64,000 nt of DNA from Clostridiales bacterium (GTDB lineage: Bacteria; Bacillota; Clostridia; Lachnospirales; Lachnospiraceae), in the NCBI GenBank assembly GCA_029098165.1, contig JAQXNU010000206.1, positions 1,567-65,566 on the forward strand, read 5' to 3'. Both the position numbers and the translations under genes were made by a program. Numbering within the stretch: the first letter of the stretch is position 1; the number at the start of each line of letters is the position of its first letter. The notes under the pieces were generated by a model. It saw nothing but the letters and a program-made list of their open reading frames with translations, searched no databases and was not told where the DNA came from. Below, piece by piece: positions 32,605 to 42,017 of this stretch.

Positions 32605-33512
32605 AGGAAAACAGATGAATTTGAGGAACAGGCAAGGATTAATCTTTTAAGAAAATGAAGATGATCAAAGGGTATTTCATGATGTCAAAAAACATGGAAT
32701 GCTCTCTTTTTATACATTATCCAACAAAAAAAGCTTGATATTTCAATAACAATTATTTATTTATCGAGAATGGTTATAAAAAAACTCACAAATAGATAAA
32801 AGAAAAATTAATTATAGTAAGTCAAAATTTAAACTTTAATAAATGAAAAATCCACTTGATTGATTTTGCAATTTGTGATATTGTATAGATGCACTAATAA
32901 ATTCCATATTTTATTAGGCCAAATTAATTCAATTAATAAACTAATTTTAAAATACATAGTTCTTAATCGATGAGATCTTATTTTTAATCATACTCCAATT
33001 TATTTTCATATATTCTAGTTAACGACTAATCTAATTTCATGTTTTTACGTATTTTAATTCAGAACAAGGAAACATTTTTGAGAGTTTTCTTGTATATTGA
33101 GCTTACTGTTTTGAAGAGGGATATAAATCAGATACAAACTTAGAGGAAAGTATTAACATTCCTCAATCTTGTATAGACACATCACCCCAAGAGATTAAGT
33201 AATAGTACGGATCAACAAAAGCTTTCTATCAACCTACGATTTAAATTAAGAAAGTCGAGGTTCTAGTTCACTTGAAAATACCCACAGATTTTATAACCTG
33301 TTATTTATGTAGCATGCAGCAACCTTTCTATGTTTTCGTCATTCACGGTGACACTATGGAACATAAGGAAGTGATGTATGCAGCAAAAGCATGTCAGAGT
33401 CATTTTACAACCATACATTCAATGTGATTATGGTGTAAATGACCTGATCATGGTAACTATGGTGCTAAATAAATTTAGCATAAAAAGGGTAGCAAAAAAG
33501 GAGGTAAAACGA

Positions 33513-36500
33513 ATGAAGCGTAAACTAAGGCTGTGGTTAGCTATACTGATGAGTATAGTAACCGTTAGTGTTATGCCTGGCACTACAGCACTGGCCGCGC
33601 AAACGATTTACGACAATGACACGGGAACGCATGGAGGTTACAACTATGAGCTCTGGAAAGATTATGGAACTACGAGTATGACCTTGAATGATGGCGGTAC
33701 CTTTAGTTGTCAGTGGAGTAATATCGGCAATGCACTTTTCCGAAAAGGAAAGAAGTACAATTCAGACAAGACGTATCAGCAGTTAGGTGGTATATCCTGC
33801 GAATACTCTTGTAATTACAATCCATCTGGTAATTCCTATCTGTGTATTTACGGATGGACAAGAGAGCCACTTGTTGAGTATTACATCGTGGAAAGCTGGG
33901 GCAGCTGGCGTCCACCGGGATCGAATTCCAAAGGAACAATCACAGTAGATGGCGCTACTTATGATATCTATGAAACAACACGTGTTAACCAGCCATCCAT
34001 CGATGGTAACACAACATTCCAGCAGTACTGGAGTGTACGTCAAAACAAGAGAACCAGCGGTACGATCAACGTTAGCGAACACTTTAAACAGTGGGAAGCT
34101 AGAGGCATGCGTATGGGTAAGATGTACGAAGTCGCTCTTACCGTGGAAGGTTATCAGAGCAGTGGTAGTGCCAATGTAACAAAGAATAACATTTATGTTG
34201 GTACTAGTCCAAATCCAACTTCTAACCCAAATCCAGCACCTGACACCAGAAGTGCATTTACTACGATTGAAGCTGAAGAATATAACAGTGCAAATTCTTC
34301 AACAATCGAGGAAATCGGAACTTCAGGCAGTGGTAAGGGTATTGGTTACATAGAGAATGGTAACACCACTACTTACAAACAGATCGATTTTGGTAATGGG
34401 GCAAACAAATTTACTGCAACGGTAGCAACCGAGCAGGATACTACAATTCAGATTCGTTCTGGCAGTGCAACGGGAACATTGCTTGGAACGTTATCAGTTG
34501 GATCTACAGGCAGCTGGGATTCTTATAAAGAAATGTCAACAACAATCAGTAACATTTCAGGCAAAAAAGACATCGTTTTAGTATTCTCTGGTCCTGTGAA
34601 TGTTGACAATTTCGTTTTTAGTGGCAATGGTCAAGTTCAGCCTACTACTGGTCCAGAACCTACTTCTACGCCTAGTGGCGATCGAAGCGCATATTCAACG
34701 ATTCAGGCAGAAGATTATGATAGTAGCAATGCTACGAATATTCAGACGTTCAATTTAAGCCAGGGCGGAAGCGCTATTGGTTATATTGAGAATGGTAATG
34801 CAATCACATTTAAGAATGTTGATTTTAGCAATGGGGCAGCTTCTGTAACAGCAAAAGTTGCATCTCAGATGAGTAATACAACAATTCAAGTAAGAGCAGG
34901 CGGACAATATGGTACTTTACTTGGTACAATCTCCGTTCCTAATACGAACAGCTGGGATTCCTACCAGAACGTAACACAAAGTATCAGTAATGTTACAGGT
35001 GTAACGGATATCACTCTTGTATTCTCAGGTCCAGTTAACGTGGATTCCTTCGTATTTAAAGGTTCCAGTGTTGCTCCAACGGCAACACCAGTTCCAACAA
35101 CTGGTCCAAACCCAACGGCAACACCTACTCCACGTCCAACCGCAACACCAGTTCCTAATACACAGGATGCATACTCTAACATTCAGGCTGAAAATTATGA
35201 CAGCAAGAGTGGTTCCAATATGGAAACATTCAATTTAAGCAATGGTGGAAGTGCAATCGGTTACATCGAGAATGGTTACTCAACAACTTATAAGAATGTA
35301 AACTTTGGTGATACTGGTGCATTATCGATTACTGCAACAGTAGCAACTGAGCAGGATACTTCCATCCAGGTACGCGCAGGCGGATCGAATGGTACTTTAC
35401 TTGGAACAATCAATGTAGGTTCTACAGGTAGCTGGGATACGTATTCCAACGTTTCAGCTAGTATCTCTAAGACAACAGGTGTAAAAGATATTACTCTTGT
35501 TTTCTCGGGAGCTGTTAATGTAGATTCCTTTAAATTCAGTACAAAGAAAGCTTCGGGTGGTGGAAGTGGCAACACTCAGAATGCAACCTTGTTAAATACT
35601 TATGGTAGTTTATTAGGTAATATGGGTACCTGTATCAATTATAACGAGTTACAGGATTCCAACAGATTAAATGCATTAAAACAGCAGTACAACAGCATCA
35701 CTCTAGAAAATGAGATGAAACCAGATGCTATCTTAGGATCAAATCCAAGCTTAATTTCCGTTCAGGAAGCAAGAAACCTTGGTTACTATATCCCAAGCAA
35801 CTGGCAGGATTCTATGGTTCCAAGATTGAACTTTAGTACGGTTGATAATGTTATGAGAATCTGCTCTCAGAATGGTCTTAAGATGAGAGCTCATACTTTG
35901 GTATGGCATAGCCAGACACCAGGTTGGTTCTTTAGAAGTAATTTTAATGGCAGCTATGGCTTCGTAAGTACACAGGTTATGGATGCTCGTGAGGAATTCT
36001 ATGTTAAGTCCATGATCAATCATGTATATAACAATCAGTATGGTGATTGTGTTTATGCATGGGATGTTGTAAATGAGCATCTTCACGCTCAAAACTCTGG
36101 CTGGGCTGGTGTTTATGGCAATGCTAAGAATGCATCTTTCGTTAAGAATGCATTCCAGTATGCATCCGACGCTTTAAAAGCTCTTGGCAAGAGAAATAGC
36201 GTTAAGCTTTTCTACAACGATTACAATACTTATGAAGTAACGAACGATATCGTTAACTTAGTAAAATACATCAATCAGAATGGCAAGAATTGTGATGGTG
36301 TTGGTATGCAGGCACATTTGGATACAAGTTTCCCAAGTGCAGCAAGCTTTAAGTCAACAATTCAGACCTTCTTAAATAATGGATTTGAAGTTCAGATCAC
36401 AGAATTTGATGCTACAAACAACAATGAATCCACACAGGCAAGCTATTGCTATGATATCTTTAAAGGTATCTTAGATTGTGTAAAAGCGGGTGGCAACATC

Positions 36501-37745
36501 ACTGGTATCACTGTTTGGGGTATGTATGACAGCATCTCTTGGAGAGCAAGTCAGAATCCATTGTTATTTAGCGGTTTGAACCAGCCAAAACAGTCCTATA
36601 ATTCTGTATTAAAAGCTTATACTGATTCTGGTTTCTCAGTTGGCGAGGTCGGTACGAATGATCCAGATCCTGATGATGATCCAACTCCAACACCAACTGG
36701 TATACCATCCGGTAATATCAGTGCGACTGATAAGATTCAGGCAGAAGATTATGACAGCAACAATGCATCCAATATCGAAACATTTAATTTAAGTGAGGGT
36801 GGAAGCGCTATCGGTTACATTGAAAATGGTAATGCAATCACATTTAAGAATGTTGACTTTGGAGATGGCGTAGCATCCTTTAAAGCAAGAGTTGCAACAG
36901 AAAATTCTACAAGTATAGAAATTCATGCAAACAGTGTAAATGGCACATTATTAGGTACGTTATCCGTTGGTTCCACAGGAAGCTGGGATACTTATAGAGA
37001 GATGTCTACAAATGTTAGCAATATCACTGGAGTAAAAGATTTAGTTCTTGTATTCTCAGGTGCAGTTAATGTTGATTGGTTTACTTTCTCAAAATCTGGT
37101 TCTGCTCAAACAGATACCCCTGACTATACAGGCAAGAAGTTAGTTGCTATCACATTTGATGATGGCCCTAATACACAGACGACCCCTCAGATTCTTGATA
37201 TCTTAGAGCGTGAAGGCGTTGTTGCTTCCTTCTTCTTGATTGGTCAGAACATCAACGATAGCGTTAAATCTGTAATGCAACGTCAGTTGGCTTTAGGCTG
37301 TGAGCTTAACAATCATTCTTGGAGCCATAGTGATATGGGTAACATGAATTATCAGCAGTGTCAGCAGGAAATTCAAAATACAAGCAATAAGATTTATCAG
37401 ATGGTTGGAGTATATCCAAAGTTCTTCCGTCCACCTTATATTTCTACAAGCAATACAATGTATCAGGCAATCGATCTTCCATTTATCTGTGGAATGACTT
37501 GTAATGACTGGGAGAATTCAACTTCCGCATGGCAAAGATCACAGACCGTTTTAAACAACGTAAAAGATGGAGATATCATTTTGTTACATGACTTTGCAGG
37601 TAATAATCAGACAGTAGAAGCATTAAGTACGATTATTCAGGGATTAAAAGACCGTGGTTATGCATTTGTAACTGTTAGTCAGTTATTTGAACTTAAGGGC
37701 ATTAATCCTAAGCAAGAGTATAAGATGTGGAACGGAGCAAACTAA
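33513..37745 (+). CDS. Secreted multimodular xylanase/deacetylase: GH11-CBM6-CBM6-CBM6-GH10-CBM6-CE4
   Basis: Signal peptide. GH11 [10 protein letters not shown] and VEGYQSSG. Four (I/Q)xAE.Y..IGYIENG..GSW CBM6 repeats. GH10 ENEMKPD, WDVVNE, ITEFD. CE4 TFDDGP, HSWSH, FRPPY, LLHD. AGGAGGT RBS. Confidence 0.93.
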
Positions 37746-37858: not shown

Positions 37859-37945
37859 AGTATTGGAACGTTTTATAGATTAATATTGTATGTGATCGTA
37901 CATACGAATTGGCTATATAGAAATCTTAATGGTAGGAGTATAAAT

Positions 37946-40018
37946 ATGAGTGCATTACATTTAATTCATGAGGTAGAACAAGGAAATCTTAGTGTCTTAA
38001 AGTCAGAACCTTGGCTGAAGTTTTTATTTTTAAATGATTCAACCGAAAACTTAAATATGGATAACTTTGATCGTGTGGGAGCGAGAACGAAAAATGCAGT
38101 TTTCGATTATGTAAAGAAGACGTTGCAGGTTTTAGAGAAAATCAAGATCACACTGACTCCAAGAGAATACAAGATTGTGGAACAAGTCTTAAGCTGGTCG
38201 GAAGTGGCGAAGTGTGGAAACCGAGCAACGCGATCTCAGTGGAGAAAAAAGGGATACAATCTAAGAATACATAACCTCGGTTCGGCACAGATTTACAAAG
38301 AATATGCAAATGGTAACAAGGAAGAGTTGATCTGCACGTTAATTCGTACCCATGGCTATCTTGGACAGATTATTCGTGGAGAATCTAAGATGCATGAGAA
38401 TGTCACTATTTATGAGTATGTTAAGAAGCATAATATTGATTTTAATATGAAACATGTATTACAAGCCTTAAATCAGTGCATCATTGAGGCAATATCAGAA
38501 ACGCTATATCAGAGGATTCAACCTAAGCTTGAGGAGAAAATCGAGTTGATCCTTCAGGGAAAATTCAAGGAGATGGAGCCAGAAGTTCGATTGAAGGGGC
38601 TTCGTTCAAAAGCAATTGCTAATGGAGAAGATTTCACAAAGGAATGGAATCAGTTAACCAAAGCCCATCCAGAGTTAAAGGCTAAGATGATTGCTATCCT
38701 TGACCAAAATAATCTATGGTATGTGGAAGCAGCCACCAGCTCCTATCGTTTAGAACATCTTCTAAAACTGTTAATTATCGCAGATATTCAGGAAAATTCC
38801 AAGGTGAAGGACATTTCATTTATTGATGTTATGAATACGATTTATTATGATTATCAAGGGAAAAAGAGAGTTAACGTCTATAAAGCTAGAATTATAGAGC
38901 ATTTACTTGACTCGATTCCGATGGAACAGTTACTGAAAAAGAATCATGAGAACAATCTGCAACTTTCCAATGAGCATCTGGAGATTAAAGTTGTAATTGA
39001 AGATGATATTGCAAGAATTTGCTTCGTATTTTCAAAAATGGCAGAAGCTTTGATTGAATTTTGTATGGCATCTGAAGGACAAGGGTCGATTTACGATAAG
39101 GCCATCATTATGTTATATGATTTATTTGGGTTACGTAGAGATGCGTATGACCGATTTAATAATGAAGACCATTATCTCGAACAGATGAATCAGTCCATTG
39201 GCTTTAAGGAAATCCTGTTAAATTATGTGGCAGGAGAGCGAATTGTGGATATCGGTCCTGGTGGTGGTGCTTTAATGGATCGTTTAGAAGAGAGATATCC
39301 AGACAAACAGATTCTAGGAATCGATATTTCAGAAAATGTAATCGAAGAATTGACGCATAAGAAGAACCGAGAACATAAGAAATGGGAAGTATATCAGGGA
39401 AATGCGTTAAATCTTAAGGAACTATTCGGAAAAGATCCAGTCGATACGATCATTCTGTCTTCAATTGTTCATGAATTATTCAGCTATATCGAATTTGATG
39501 GGAAGAGATACAATTATGAAACATTAAAGACTGCATTTCGAAGTATGTTTGAAGTCTTAAATGTTGGTGGAAGAATCTGTATCCGAGATGGCGTAATGAC
39601 CGAACCGAAGGATATGGTTCGTCAGATTCGTTTTAAGAATGTTGAGGATCGTCAAATCTTAGATGATTACTGCCACGATTTTAAGGGAAGAGAAGTACGT
39701 TATACGGAGCTTGCGAAAGATCTAGTAAGTATGAAGGTAAACGATGCAATGGAATTTCTATATACGTATACTTGGGGAAAAGATAGCTATTCTCATGAAA
39801 TCGAAGAGCAGTTTGGCTACTATACACCGACAGAATACGTTGAATTATTCAAGGAGCTCTTTGGTGAGAAAATCCGTATTGTAGAAATAAAACACTATTT
39901 ACAGGAAGGGTATGCAGAAAATCTATTACCAAAGGTTGATTTTATGGATGAAGAAGGCAAAAATGTACAACTTCCAGACAGTACGCTGATTCTGGTGATT
40001 GAAAAGGTTGCAGAGTAG
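37946..40018 (+). CDS. Large protein: uncharacterised (possibly degenerate HD-fold) N-terminus plus class I SAM methyltransferase
   Basis: IVDIGPGGG, LGIDIS, GNAL, IILSSIVHE, GGRICIRD in the C-terminal third; GTAGGAG RBS. Confidence 0.8.
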   Translation: MSALHLIHEVEQGNLSVLKSEPWLKFLFLNDSTENLNMDNFDRVGARTKNAVFDYVKKTLQVLEKIKITLTPREYKIVEQVLSWSEVAKCGNRATRSQWRKKGYNLRIHNLGSAQIYKEYANGNKEELICTLIRTHGYLGQIIRGESKMHENVTIYEYVKKHNIDFNMKHVLQALNQCIIEAISETLYQRIQPKLEEKIELILQGKFKEMEPEVRLKGLRSKAIANGEDFTKEWNQLTKAHPELKAKMIAILDQNNLWYVEAATSSYRLEHLLKLLIIADIQENSKVKDISFIDVMNTIYYDYQGKKRVNVYKARIIEHLLDSIPMEQLLKKNHENNLQLSNEHLEIKVVIEDDIARICFVFSKMAEALIEFCMASEGQGSIYDKAIIMLYDLFGLRRDAYDRFNNEDHYLEQMNQSIGFKEILLNYVAGERIVDIGPGGGALMDRLEERYPDKQILGIDISENVIEELTHKKNREHKKWEVYQGNALNLKELFGKDPVDTIILSSIVHELFSYIEFDGKRYNYETLKTAFRSMFEVLNVGGRICIRDGVMTEPKDMVRQIRFKNVEDRQILDDYCHDFKGREVRYTELAKDLVSMKVNDAMEFLYTYTWGKDSYSHEIEEQFGYYTPTEYVELFKELFGEKIRIVEIKHYLQEGYAENLLPKVDFMDEEGKNVQLPDSTLILVIEKVAE

Positions 40019-40239: not shown

Positions 40240-40269
40240 TTGACAATTATAAACATAATGATTTATAAT
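40240..40269 (+). promoter_or_regulatory. Sigma-A promoter of the riboswitch leader
   Basis: TTGACA (40240), 18 bp, TATAAT (40264). Confidence 0.7.
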
Positions 40270-40284
40270 ATTACATATCGTGAA

Positions 40285-40402
40285 TAGGTTGAGCAAACTT
40301 ACAGAAATGTGAGGACGCAAAGCTCGAAGTCTAACAAAACAGAAATATCTGTTTTTATGATCGTTCAGCTGCAAAGTGTTTTATAACTTTGTAGCTTTTT
40401 TT
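40285..40402 (+). ncRNA. c-di-GMP-I (GEMM) riboswitch 1 with intrinsic terminator
   Basis: GCAAAC-TTACA-GAAA-TGTGAG-GACGCAAAGC...GTCTAA...ATGAT...GCTGC; terminator GCTGCAAAGT/ACTTTGTAGC plus T7. Confidence 0.9.
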
Positions 40403-40511
40403 ACGTTTATAAGAGAATACAAAGCTACGTACATAGGTGAAACAGTACAAAACGAGAAAATTGATGGATTCTGCGGGGATGAAATTAATAGAAGAAACTG
40501 TTGAAACTGAA

Positions 40512-40632
40512 TAGAAAGTGGGCAAACTTACAGAAATGTAAGGACGCAAAGCTTGAAGTCTAAGAAAACATAAGATTATATGTTTTTATGACCGTTCGGC
40601 TGCAAAGTTTAATTTACTTTGCAGTTTTTTTT
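40512..40632 (+). ncRNA. c-di-GMP-I (GEMM) riboswitch 2 with intrinsic terminator
   Basis: GGCAAAC-TTACA-GAAA-TGTAAG-GACGCAAAGC...GTCTAA...ATGAC...GGCTGC; terminator CTGCAAAGT/ACTTTGCAG plus T8. Confidence 0.92.
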
Positions 40633-40721
40633 ATTCAGTAATGTTGCTTTTTATCGAATAAGTGTAGTTATTGTGTTTCTTGTAGGCTATATCATTGATC
40701 AGTCAGGAAAGGATGAAAGGT

Positions 40722-41570
40722 ATGAAGGGGATATTATCATTTGTAAAAACTAATTTGGCTAAGGTACCATCCATGAAGTTAAATGGAATTCGAGAATCTC
40801 AGAATCACTATGACGAGGATACTTCTACAAGCTTTAAAGGAAACTTAGAGATTTCGGATGGAGTCATTGCGTTGGTAGCTCCAATGGGAAGAGATAATTT
40901 GATGGAGAGTGCTCAAGAGATTACGATGGAGGTAGCAGGAAATCGCAAAGAAGCCAAAGAAAATGTACAAGATGCTTTCTTGGATTTAGAACCAGTTGTA
41001 GAACCAGGTACTTTTCAAGTTAGCATCAATAAAAAGAATAATAATGATATTTCTGTTAATGGTGCTTTTTATGATACCCTTGTAAATACTTCCTACGATG
41101 TAATGGCTAAGATTGATAGTATCAAAGGGCAATTAGGACTAAATAATCCGGCAACAGAATTAGTGCTTGGAATGGAAAATGAGATTAGTTCTGTTAAGAC
41201 ATATCTATATAAACAGTATTATAAAAATATCGAAGTCCTTGGTTATACGGTAAAAGCGTCGATGGATTATAATGCAAATGAGTTAGGTATTGAATCTTGT
41301 TTAATCCAAAGTGAGGCACTTGTAAAGAATATTGAAACAATTGTTCCGAAGTTATCGGAAAAGGAGACAAGTGAATGGATTCGTACTCTGTATCCAGAAG
41401 CTACAAAGATTATATCTTCTTTGATCATTTATCCAGATAAATATGGTAAGAGTTTGAAATTAGCTTATCTGTCTTATCTTTATAATCAAAATGATCGTAG
41501 TAGAAGACAGCAGATTATTACGGATGCCAATACTGGAGAAATAATTTACGAAGATGATATGTGTTTTTAG
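40722..41570 (+). CDS. Stand-alone FTP/PepSY-like (M4/M36 protease propeptide-like) protein
   Basis: TYLYKQYYKNIEVLGYTV resembles the FTP motif; LIIYP..LAY...ITDANTGEII resembles PepSY. No HExxH. Confidence 0.6.
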   Translation: MKGILSFVKTNLAKVPSMKLNGIRESQNHYDEDTSTSFKGNLEISDGVIALVAPMGRDNLMESAQEITMEVAGNRKEAKENVQDAFLDLEPVVEPGTFQVSINKKNNNDISVNGAFYDTLVNTSYDVMAKIDSIKGQLGLNNPATELVLGMENEISSVKTYLYKQYYKNIEVLGYTVKASMDYNANELGIESCLIQSEALVKNIETIVPKLSEKETSEWIRTLYPEATKIISSLIIYPDKYGKSLKLAYLSYLYNQNDRSRRQQIITDANTGEIIYEDDMCF

Positions 41571-41644
41571 TCGGATGGAACTAGATGGTATCATATGCAT
41601 GGATTGATACGATGCGAGCCTTAATTTAATATATGGTTGCTACT

Positions 41645-41690
41645 ACAAGAAGATGGAGTCTAATTGCAAGGTTAGACTCCATCTTCTTGT
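41645..41690. terminator. Perfect 19-bp hairpin
   Basis: ACAAGAAGATGGAGTCTAA-ttgcaagg-TTAGACTCCATCTTCTTGT. Confidence 0.75.
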
Positions 41691-41907
41691 TTCATGGGAT
41701 GTTTCTATGTGGAGAAAAATTAATTCGAGATACTTCTACTTACGTCGTTGAATCTGATACATTTAATGGAGTAGAAACTTGTCAAATCAAACCCAAATAT
41801 GGCAAAATAAATAGAATTGATGCAAGTTGGCTTCAATAATTTGTTGAATAAATATAAAAATGCCATAAAAACTGTGAAAATTTTATAAAAATTAGTGAAT
41901 TTTTACA

Positions 41908-41984
41908 TTGTATTTTTGGGTCGATAAGCATATGATATGTTCAAATAGAGAATAACTTTTGTGTTCCATAATAATTCTCTATTG
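41908..41984 (+). promoter_or_regulatory. Promoter and 5' leader hairpin of the V-ATPase operon
   Basis: TTGTAT, 17 bp, TATGAT (41931); AATAGAGAAT/ATTCTCTATT inverted repeat at 41944-41984. Confidence 0.55.
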
Positions 41985-42017
41985 ACCACCCAGAATTTCT
42001 AGGAAAGAAGGGATTCA

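Follow-up and report, generated by a model that had tools for sequence, protein, structure and literature searches.

Proteases of the thermolysin family (M4) rank among the major secreted enzymes and virulence factors. The propeptides of these enzymes serve as intramolecular chaperones that are able to work in trans, as the thermolysin and elastase prosequences do, and to our knowledge they are known as inhibitors only within the zymogen. Here, we describe a gene that encodes a propeptide of this type with no protease attached. The gene, which we call the orphan, lies in a 64,000-nucleotide (nt) stretch of a Lachnospiraceae genome (Clostridiales bacterium, assembly GCA_029098165.1, contig JAQXNU010000206.1, positions 1,567 to 65,566; "the window" here means this whole stretch), behind two consecutive riboswitch aptamers of the c-di-GMP-I class, named for the second messenger cyclic di-GMP (c-di-GMP).

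Several described systems resemble one part or another of this arrangement. Stand-alone propeptide-like inhibitors are established for subtilases, an example being Plasmodium SUB1-ProM, of the subtilisin I9 type (PMC6993865). In Clostridioides difficile, c-di-GMP represses the metalloprotease gene zmpI (PPEP-1) through the OFF switch Cdi-1-12, and class II ON switches raise the levels of the ZmpI adhesin substrates CD2831 and CD3246 (PMC6200980). About 17,000 PepSY-only proteins have been catalogued, and in 2004 such proteins were proposed as peptidase regulators (Yeats et al., in the form in which that work is cited in PMC12714742). One of them, DbfQ of Vibrio cholerae, acts in the biofilm life cycle (PMC12714742). 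Finally, the Bc3-5 triple-tandem c-di-GMP-I riboswitch of Bacillus thuringiensis is an ON switch that is more stringent and more digital than a single unit (PMC4759541).

The orphan encodes a free-standing FTP-PepSY propeptide homolog

The orphan is an open reading frame (ORF) of 282 amino acids (aa) at positions 40722-41570 of the + strand. A preliminary description of the window, made by reading its letters and ORF translations, had placed a gene of this size at these positions behind a tandem riboswitch, and both the ORF call and the Rfam aptamer matches bear this out. Residues 94-282 (41001..41570, +), which end in YEDDMCF followed by the stop codon, are a true homolog of the M4 (thermolysin) propeptide, consisting of an FTP and a PepSY domain. 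Conventional domain searches gave little indication of this. Pfam, applied to the single 282-aa sequence, returned a sub-threshold FTP match (E = 0.064; 13.5 bits, with a cut-off of 21) at residues 161-181, TYLYKQYYKNIEVLGYTV, and no PepSY match. An NCBIfam scan of the protein gave nothing useful, and word-indexed protein searches with either the single protein or a 13-sequence alignment as the query produced almost no matches.

An exhaustive phmmer search of 1.84 billion cluster representatives recovered 33 homologs, which aligned to orphan residues ~94-282. Pfam recognized FTP in 25 of them, Peptidase_M4 in 16, and Peptidase_M4_C in 15. The positions that are nearly invariant across the 33 homologs (G114, G139, Q165, Y167, V172, and A269) are all present in the orphan. 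When a profile of the short relatives was compared with the PDB, it matched the propeptide of the vibriolysin MCP-02 (3nqy_A; E = 4.5e-9) over both domains, as well as pro-thermolysin (5a3y; E = 1.3e-7) and the propeptide of pro-elastase. In the profile alignment, the orphan C terminus falls ~3 residues from the end of the crystallized MCP-02 propeptide chain. The propeptide of the M4 protease encoded in the same genome was also matched directly by BLASTP, over orphan residues 112-282 (26% identity; E = 1e-6), with the alignment reaching the C terminus.

Structure prediction led to the same assignment. The single-sequence AlphaFold model had a mean predicted local distance difference test (pLDDT) score of 40.6 and was uninformative except for a weakly PepSY-like C terminus. 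AlphaFold2 run on a 7-sequence alignment gave pLDDT values of 75-95 at residues 94-280, with residues 1-93 disordered; residues 213-281 of this model form a helix and a four-stranded sheet (pLDDT 75-93). The top Foldseek matches in the PDB were MCP-02 propeptide chains (E = 4e-8; target template modeling [TM] score, 0.63-0.64), and other matches included the PepSY domains of YpeB, the propeptide of the M36 protease fungalysin (4k90_B), and YycI. The preliminary description had suspected an FTP-like segment and a PepSY-like C-terminal end. The former coincides exactly with the sub-threshold Pfam match, and its homology to FTP is confirmed by the phmmer relatives and the profile; the fold of the latter is confirmed by AlphaFold and Foldseek, although Pfam is silent on PepSY, and together the model and the profile establish the two-domain fold at residues 94-280. 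The protein contains no HExxH motif, as had been noted from its translation. Because a catalytic domain is absent, the orphan is a propeptide homolog and not a protease zymogen.

The preceding 93 residues (40722..41000, +) are predicted to be disordered (pLDDT <40), are poorly conserved in the alignment, and lack a signal peptide as judged by hydropathy. The only N-terminal motif common to this head and its orthologs is (F/L)xx(F/V)xxxxxKVP. The ATG start at 40722 is backed by the Shine-Dalgarno-like sequence GGAAAGGA (40707..40714, +), 7 nt upstream, and by N-terminal alignment with the ortholog start, MKVLNVFKKFAF.

The orphan ends at the propeptide-catalytic domain boundary and is conserved

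The orphan carries the sequence TGEIIY at residues 271-276 and ends at residue 282. In the M4 protease of the same genome, TGEIIY is found at positions 679-684, and Pfam places the start of the Peptidase_M4 domain at residue 697. The orphan C terminus corresponds to protease residue 690, 7 residues ahead of the catalytic domain, which agrees with the preliminary claim that the protein stops where an M4 catalytic domain would begin. No remnant of an M4 catalytic domain was found in any frame of positions 41571-42017.

Orthologs are present in metagenome-assembled genomes (MAGs) of two sister species of the genus, G004 (311 aa) and G005 (289 aa). Both end in IIYED(S/D)xxF followed by a stop codon, at the same point as the window protein, and at least six further representatives of 50%-identity clusters, for at least eight in all, stop within 0-2 residues of the same end point. 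The window protein is 33% identical to the two orthologs over its full length and ~39% identical over the locally aligned FTP-PepSY part; the orthologs are 64% identical to each other. The ratio of nonsynonymous to synonymous substitution rates (dN/dS) between the latter is 0.28 overall and falls to 0.22 within the FTP-PepSY part, and the orthologs are thus under purifying selection. The orphan is found in 3 of 14 genomes of the genus, including that of the window. A search of genome contigs with a 5-sequence alignment matched only the two sister MAGs, and the same search in Joint Genome Institute (JGI) metagenomes yielded no matches.

A tree built on the propeptide region places the three riboswitch-linked proteins in one clade (support, 0.95) nested in a clade of short proteins (support, 0.98), and the nearest relatives outside the short-protein clade are M4 proteases. 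The remaining short proteins are scattered among protease-attached propeptides, which suggests that stand-alone FTP-PepSY genes probably arose several times.

We considered whether the orphan could be the functionless remnant of a decaying M4 protease gene that has lost its catalytic part. Its end at a domain boundary and its patchy presence, in 3 of 14 genomes, are what such decay would produce, and the scatter of short FTP-PepSY proteins in the tree suggests repeated truncation events. We nevertheless regard a remnant as very improbable. Three species share the same stop and the same tandem riboswitch leader, with the orthologs only 33% identical to the window copy; dN/dS is 0.22-0.28; the conserved core residues are intact; nothing of a catalytic domain is left 3' of the gene; and a strong promoter and ribosome binding site (RBS) are present. 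Homologs that continued into a catalytic domain had been named in the preliminary description as the mark of a truncated pseudogene. The homologs that bear on this point, the sister orthologs and the further cluster representatives, do not continue, and on this ground we set the pseudogene reading aside; the conserved stop, the dN/dS values, and the clean downstream region largely refute it.

Other relatives differ in their N termini and neighbors. G004 also carries two adjacent stand-alone FTP-PepSY paralogs of 279 and 361 aa (locus L012, 3680-5685), the second with an aBig_2-like part, and both have N-terminal signal or anchor sequences. No c-di-GMP riboswitch was found at this pair or at the relative P0029. 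Several representatives, comprising FTP-PepSY proteins and M4 proteases (P0010, P0011, P0014, P0017, and P0032), have a cytoplasmic zinc-ribbon at the N terminus and then a transmembrane helix, which suggests membrane-anchored forms with an intracellular metal-binding head. A 502-aa secreted protein without a Pfam match is encoded 166 nt after the G004 ortholog (locus L010, 4761-6269) and may be cotranscribed with it; it is absent from the corresponding position in G005 and in the window.

A tandem c-di-GMP-I leader precedes the orphan in three species

The orphan belongs to a self-contained + strand unit, with a methyltransferase-domain gene (37886-40018) on one side and a V-type ATPase operon (from 42018) on the other. 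The unit begins with a sigma-70-type promoter, TTGACA-18 nt-TATAAT (40240..40269, +), that matches the consensus at 12 of 12 positions. Two c-di-GMP-I aptamers follow on the same strand, at 40282..40376 (60.4 bits) and 40511..40607 (68.9 bits); both match Rfam model RF01051 (gathering score, 35) over its full length, 1-87. Each is succeeded by an intrinsic terminator with an 11-bp stem and a T-run, predicted by folding. The 5' arm of terminator 1 (40367..40403, +) reuses the last nucleotides of aptamer 1, and terminator 2 (40598..40634, +) overlaps the GGCU that closes the second helix of aptamer 2. Narrower limits for the two terminators are 40367-40396 and 40598-40626.

In both units, the 5' arm of the terminator begins with the last four nucleotides of the second helix of the aptamer. 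When folded without constraint, each unit forms the full 11-bp terminator and the base of the second aptamer helix opens. When the Rfam aptamer pairs were enforced, the terminator shrank to 7 bp and the four nucleotides beside the U-run were left unpaired, at an energy cost of 5.7 kcal/mol in unit 1 and 3.8 kcal/mol in unit 2. Since each terminator shares nucleotides with its aptamer, we infer an ON design for both units. Both would have to be occupied for transcription to read through, and the gene would be expressed only at high c-di-GMP.

The leader is conserved along with the gene. The preliminary description had raised the question of whether homologs carry leaders of the GEMM type, and both orthologs do, with tandem c-di-GMP-I aptamers in each of G004 and G005 (four further aptamers). 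The layout is the same in both: promoter, aptamer, terminator, spacer, aptamer, terminator, and RBS. The flanking genes differ, encoding an ATP-binding cassette (ABC) exporter and NIF3 in the sister species and the methyltransferase and V-type ATPase in the window. Because the layout is conserved while the flanks are not, the leader and the gene move together as one module.

A perfect 21-bp hairpin with a weak U-tail (GUUUCAUGG) lies 3' of the gene (41645..41690, +) and is likely the end of a monocistronic unit. The strong hairpin reported from the initial reading is thus present; its segment alone has a folding energy of -34.1 kcal/mol, and a z-score of -5.2 relative to shuffled sequences was obtained for the 161-nt region around it. 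No second copy of the hairpin was found in the genome, where blastn matched only its own inverted arm.

The genome encodes a single M4 protease and other c-di-GMP-I targets

The preliminary description had supposed that the orphan acts on a metalloprotease encoded elsewhere. In the search of the 3.76-Mb genome for M4 and M36 proteases, exactly one M4 protease came to light, and neither M4 nor M36 catalytic domains without a propeptide were detected. A hidden Markov model (HMM) of the orphan family, run on all six-frame ORFs, matched only two frames, the orphan itself and a 1,513-codon frame on contig C174 (E = 5e-23); Peptidase_M4_C matched the latter frame and no other in the genome. The protein (C174:1150-5688) has 1,508 aa and a classical signal peptide and is predicted to be Sec secreted. 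The signal peptide is followed by two CBM2 domains, aBig_2, an FTP-PepSY propeptide of its own, intact Peptidase_M4 and M4_C domains (with HEFTH at residue 851), and CarboxypepD_reg-type C-terminal domains. The promoter of the gene is an ordinary one. On contig C174, nhmmer detected no c-di-GMP aptamer, and Rfam reported none at protease locus L004, which spans only an internal part of the protease gene. This protease is the obvious candidate partner of the orphan, and G004 likewise has both an orphan ortholog and an M4 protease of similar build.

Using nhmmer, we located the other c-di-GMP-I aptamers of the genome. On contig C173 (from ~19230), an aptamer lies 5' of a gene for a surface protein of more than 1,300 aa with CBM2-like, TSP3-like, and vWA-like parts. 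Single aptamers precede genes for a methyl-accepting chemotaxis protein (C81:39789-39869, -), a 692-aa polytopic membrane protein (C279:2370-2463, -), and a secreted surface protein (C73:17854-17963, +). The C81 and C173 units have the same design as the window leader, with a terminator that overlaps the aptamer. By their predicted products, the targets of these leaders are a typical attachment regulon.

The N-terminal CBM2 pair of the M4 protease resembles the N-terminal modules of the C173 surface protein (SSWPGAFNTQLTITNTSDNVIDNWAISFHMPYEITDLWNG versus SQWDTAFNADVFIKNIGNSDIDNWSVEFELPYEITNIWNG). The protease and this adhesin-like protein may bind the same substrate surface.

The orphan may act on the M4 protease in trans

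We tentatively propose, as the likeliest of the functions considered, that the orphan binds the catalytic domain of the single M4 protease of the cell, either keeping it latent or aiding its folding. At high c-di-GMP, as in a sessile or attached state, both terminators would be bypassed and a free copy of the propeptide would be made. This copy would bind the M4 catalytic domain as the cis propeptide does, and the bound protease would be held latent, or assisted in folding, during deployment of the c-di-GMP-induced surface proteins, which would thereby be spared degradation. Considered broadly, a role as an inhibitor or chaperone in trans is plausible. The more specific proposal of a second-messenger-gated latency factor, in which high c-di-GMP would lead the free propeptide to cap the cellulose-binding M4 protease in trans so that adhesins survive, is possible but somewhat doubtful.

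Several observations weigh against an action on the M4 protease, and the most direct concerns localization. The protease is Sec exported, whereas the window protein and its G005 ortholog have neither a signal peptide nor a transmembrane helix, and this mismatch weakens the reading of the orphan as an inhibitor or chaperone in trans. The window protein has no hydrophobic N-terminal segment (maximum 15-residue Kyte-Doolittle mean, 1.35), which confirms the earlier remark that it lacks a clear signal peptide. The corresponding maximum is 0.4 for the G005 ortholog, versus 3.0-3.5 for the protease signal peptide and for a hydrophobic helix at the N terminus of the G004 ortholog. That helix is found in G004 only, the charges that flank it give no clear outside orientation, and it resembles a recent insertion built of short repeats. 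Since two of the three copies lack an export signal, the orphan might act before or during export of the zymogen. Beyond localization, the protease already carries its own propeptide, with which the orphan shares only 26% identity; the genes lie on separate contigs and show no visible coregulation; and of 13 other genomes in the genus, 10 lack the orphan.

A frame other than that of the gene, at positions 40619-40753 (+), overlaps the start of the gene and contains the sequences ISVVIVFLVGYII and FYRISVVIVFLVGYIIDQSGKDERYEG. It resembles the N-terminal transmembrane helix plus linker of the G004 ortholog (MEIVFIVFIVVVAVLGFAIKQNAFGKF), and deletion of one G from the GGGG run at ~40727-40730 would join it to the gene. 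We rejected the frame as a hidden N-terminal transmembrane segment: it offers neither a usable start codon nor an RBS, it falls within the terminator T-run, and the G005 ortholog, which has a strong RBS, is likewise free of a helix. We take it to be either a chance match within T-rich sequence or what is left of a membrane anchor since lost.

PepSY-type modules also act on partners other than proteases, as DbfQ does on a sensor kinase (PMC12714742) and YpeB does on SleB (PMC13556211), and this too counts against the M4 protease as the target. The FTP-PepSY module could therefore have been reused to bind a partner unrelated to M4 proteases, such as a cytoplasmic or membrane signaling protein or another hydrolase, and the orphan would then be an output factor of c-di-GMP signaling. 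The lack of an export signal in two of the three riboswitch-linked copies would fit a reused module, as would the absence of linkage to the protease gene. Among PepSY-only proteins, DbfQ is known to regulate a histidine kinase (PMC12714742) and YpeB a cortex lytic enzyme (PMC13556211), and YpeB and YycI are among the fold matches of the orphan model, the YycI match being a further point against a protease partner. The long disordered head, with its small conserved motif, could be a separate interaction element. The orphan, however, keeps the whole two-domain propeptide unit, unlike generic PepSY proteins; M4 proteases are its closest relatives beyond the short clade; and in none of the three species does a neighboring gene encode a two-component system or another obvious partner. 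We judge reuse rather unlikely, although export, the protease's own propeptide, linkage, distribution, and the existence of non-protease partners together make it a serious rival.

The orphan might instead be an intermolecular foldase or activator through which more active M4 protease, or more of a relative lacking a propeptide, would be obtained at high c-di-GMP. This would draw on the general ability of M4 propeptides to chaperone in trans, and the orphan does have the same fold as the MCP-02 propeptide. Yet the only M4 protease of the genome comes with its own full propeptide, the genome search turned up no M4 or M36 catalytic domain lacking one, and a foldase would meet the same localization problem as an inhibitor. 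We consider an exclusive role of this kind to have little chance of being correct.

Other features of the locus

The window also encodes a 1,455-aa multidomain xylanase (33378-37745) with GH11, GH10, four CBM6, and CE4 deacetylase domains. This enzyme indicates a plant-fiber-degrading lifestyle; the host is a fiber-degrading gut-type Bacillota bacterium. A 68-aa ORF at positions 41633-41839 has no similarity to an 80-aa ORF located 3' of the G005 ortholog.

Discussion

The system is small, consisting of one leader, one 282-aa protein, and one protease, and is directly testable in vitro. If the proposed action on the protease is correct, bacteria could turn off a stable extracellular protease after its synthesis, with timing set by c-di-GMP, and the "protease versus adhesin" logic of C. 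difficile would extend to induction of an inhibitor instead of repression of a protease. If the orphan is a latency factor, it would set two precedents, as the first protein inhibitor of the propeptide type for a thermolysin-family protease and as the first protease inhibitor known to be controlled by a riboswitch. Action before or during zymogen export, if true, would represent a new control point.

Intracellular inhibitors of M4 proteases exist. Emfourin (M4in) is a small, signal-less bacterial protein that inhibits protealysin-like M4 proteases. Its fold is unrelated to that of the orphan, it is cotranscribed with its protease, and the protease that it targets also lacks a signal peptide.

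The preliminary description had stated that the orphan has no described equivalent. For the exact combination, our literature search gave no counterexample. We did not find in print a stand-alone gene for a full FTP-PepSY unit treated as a regulator, a candidate protease inhibitor behind a riboswitch or a link between PepSY and a c-di-GMP riboswitch, or a conserved pairing of an FTP-PepSY gene with a c-di-GMP riboswitch. As a general statement it was too strong, as PepSY-only proteins (PMC12714742), subtilase prodomain inhibitors (PMC6993865), and control of a protease and its adhesin substrates by c-di-GMP (PMC6200980) are all known.

The leader most closely resembles Bc3-5 (PMC4759541). In both, complete aptamer-plus-terminator units stand in series behind one promoter, here with two units conserved in G004 and G005, and the Bc3-5 terminator overlaps P1/P3 of its aptamer, an overlap that gives ON logic. 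Bc3-5 differs in having three units rather than two and in controlling the cspABCDE operon.

The protein itself is most like the M4 propeptides (PF07504 plus PF03413), as represented by MCP-02 (3NQY/3NQZ chain A), pro-thermolysin (5A3Y), and LasB (8CR3), with which it shares the two-domain fold, sequence homology, and a C terminus at the propeptide-mature enzyme boundary. Unlike these, it is a separate gene with no catalytic domain and is placed under second-messenger control, and it has a 93-residue disordered head where a signal peptide would be.

As a prodomain copied into a gene of its own, the orphan parallels SUB1-ProM, which acts in trans on a protease that keeps its own prodomain (PMC6993865). 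The two differ in fold (I9 versus FTP-PepSY) and in protease clan, and SUB1-ProM is eukaryotic and has no riboswitch; inhibition is demonstrated for SUB1-ProM and would be an inference for the orphan.

DbfQ of V. cholerae (PMC12714742) and YpeB of B. subtilis (PMC13556211) are likewise free-standing PepSY folds, and these two restrain a partner protein. They lack FTP, are exported or membrane anchored, adjoin the gene of their partner, and target a kinase or a lytic transglycosylase. The orphan, in contrast, has no signal peptide, and its neighbors are the methyltransferase-domain and V-type ATPase genes in the window and the ABC exporter and NIF3 genes in the sister species.

The proposed physiology is closest to that of C. 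difficile, where the relative levels of a secreted zinc metalloprotease and of surface proteins are governed by c-di-GMP riboswitches. In C. difficile, the gene of an M34 protease is switched off and single aptamers are used. Here, the protease is of family M4, no riboswitch was found for its gene, and two aptamers in tandem would switch on its putative inhibitor.

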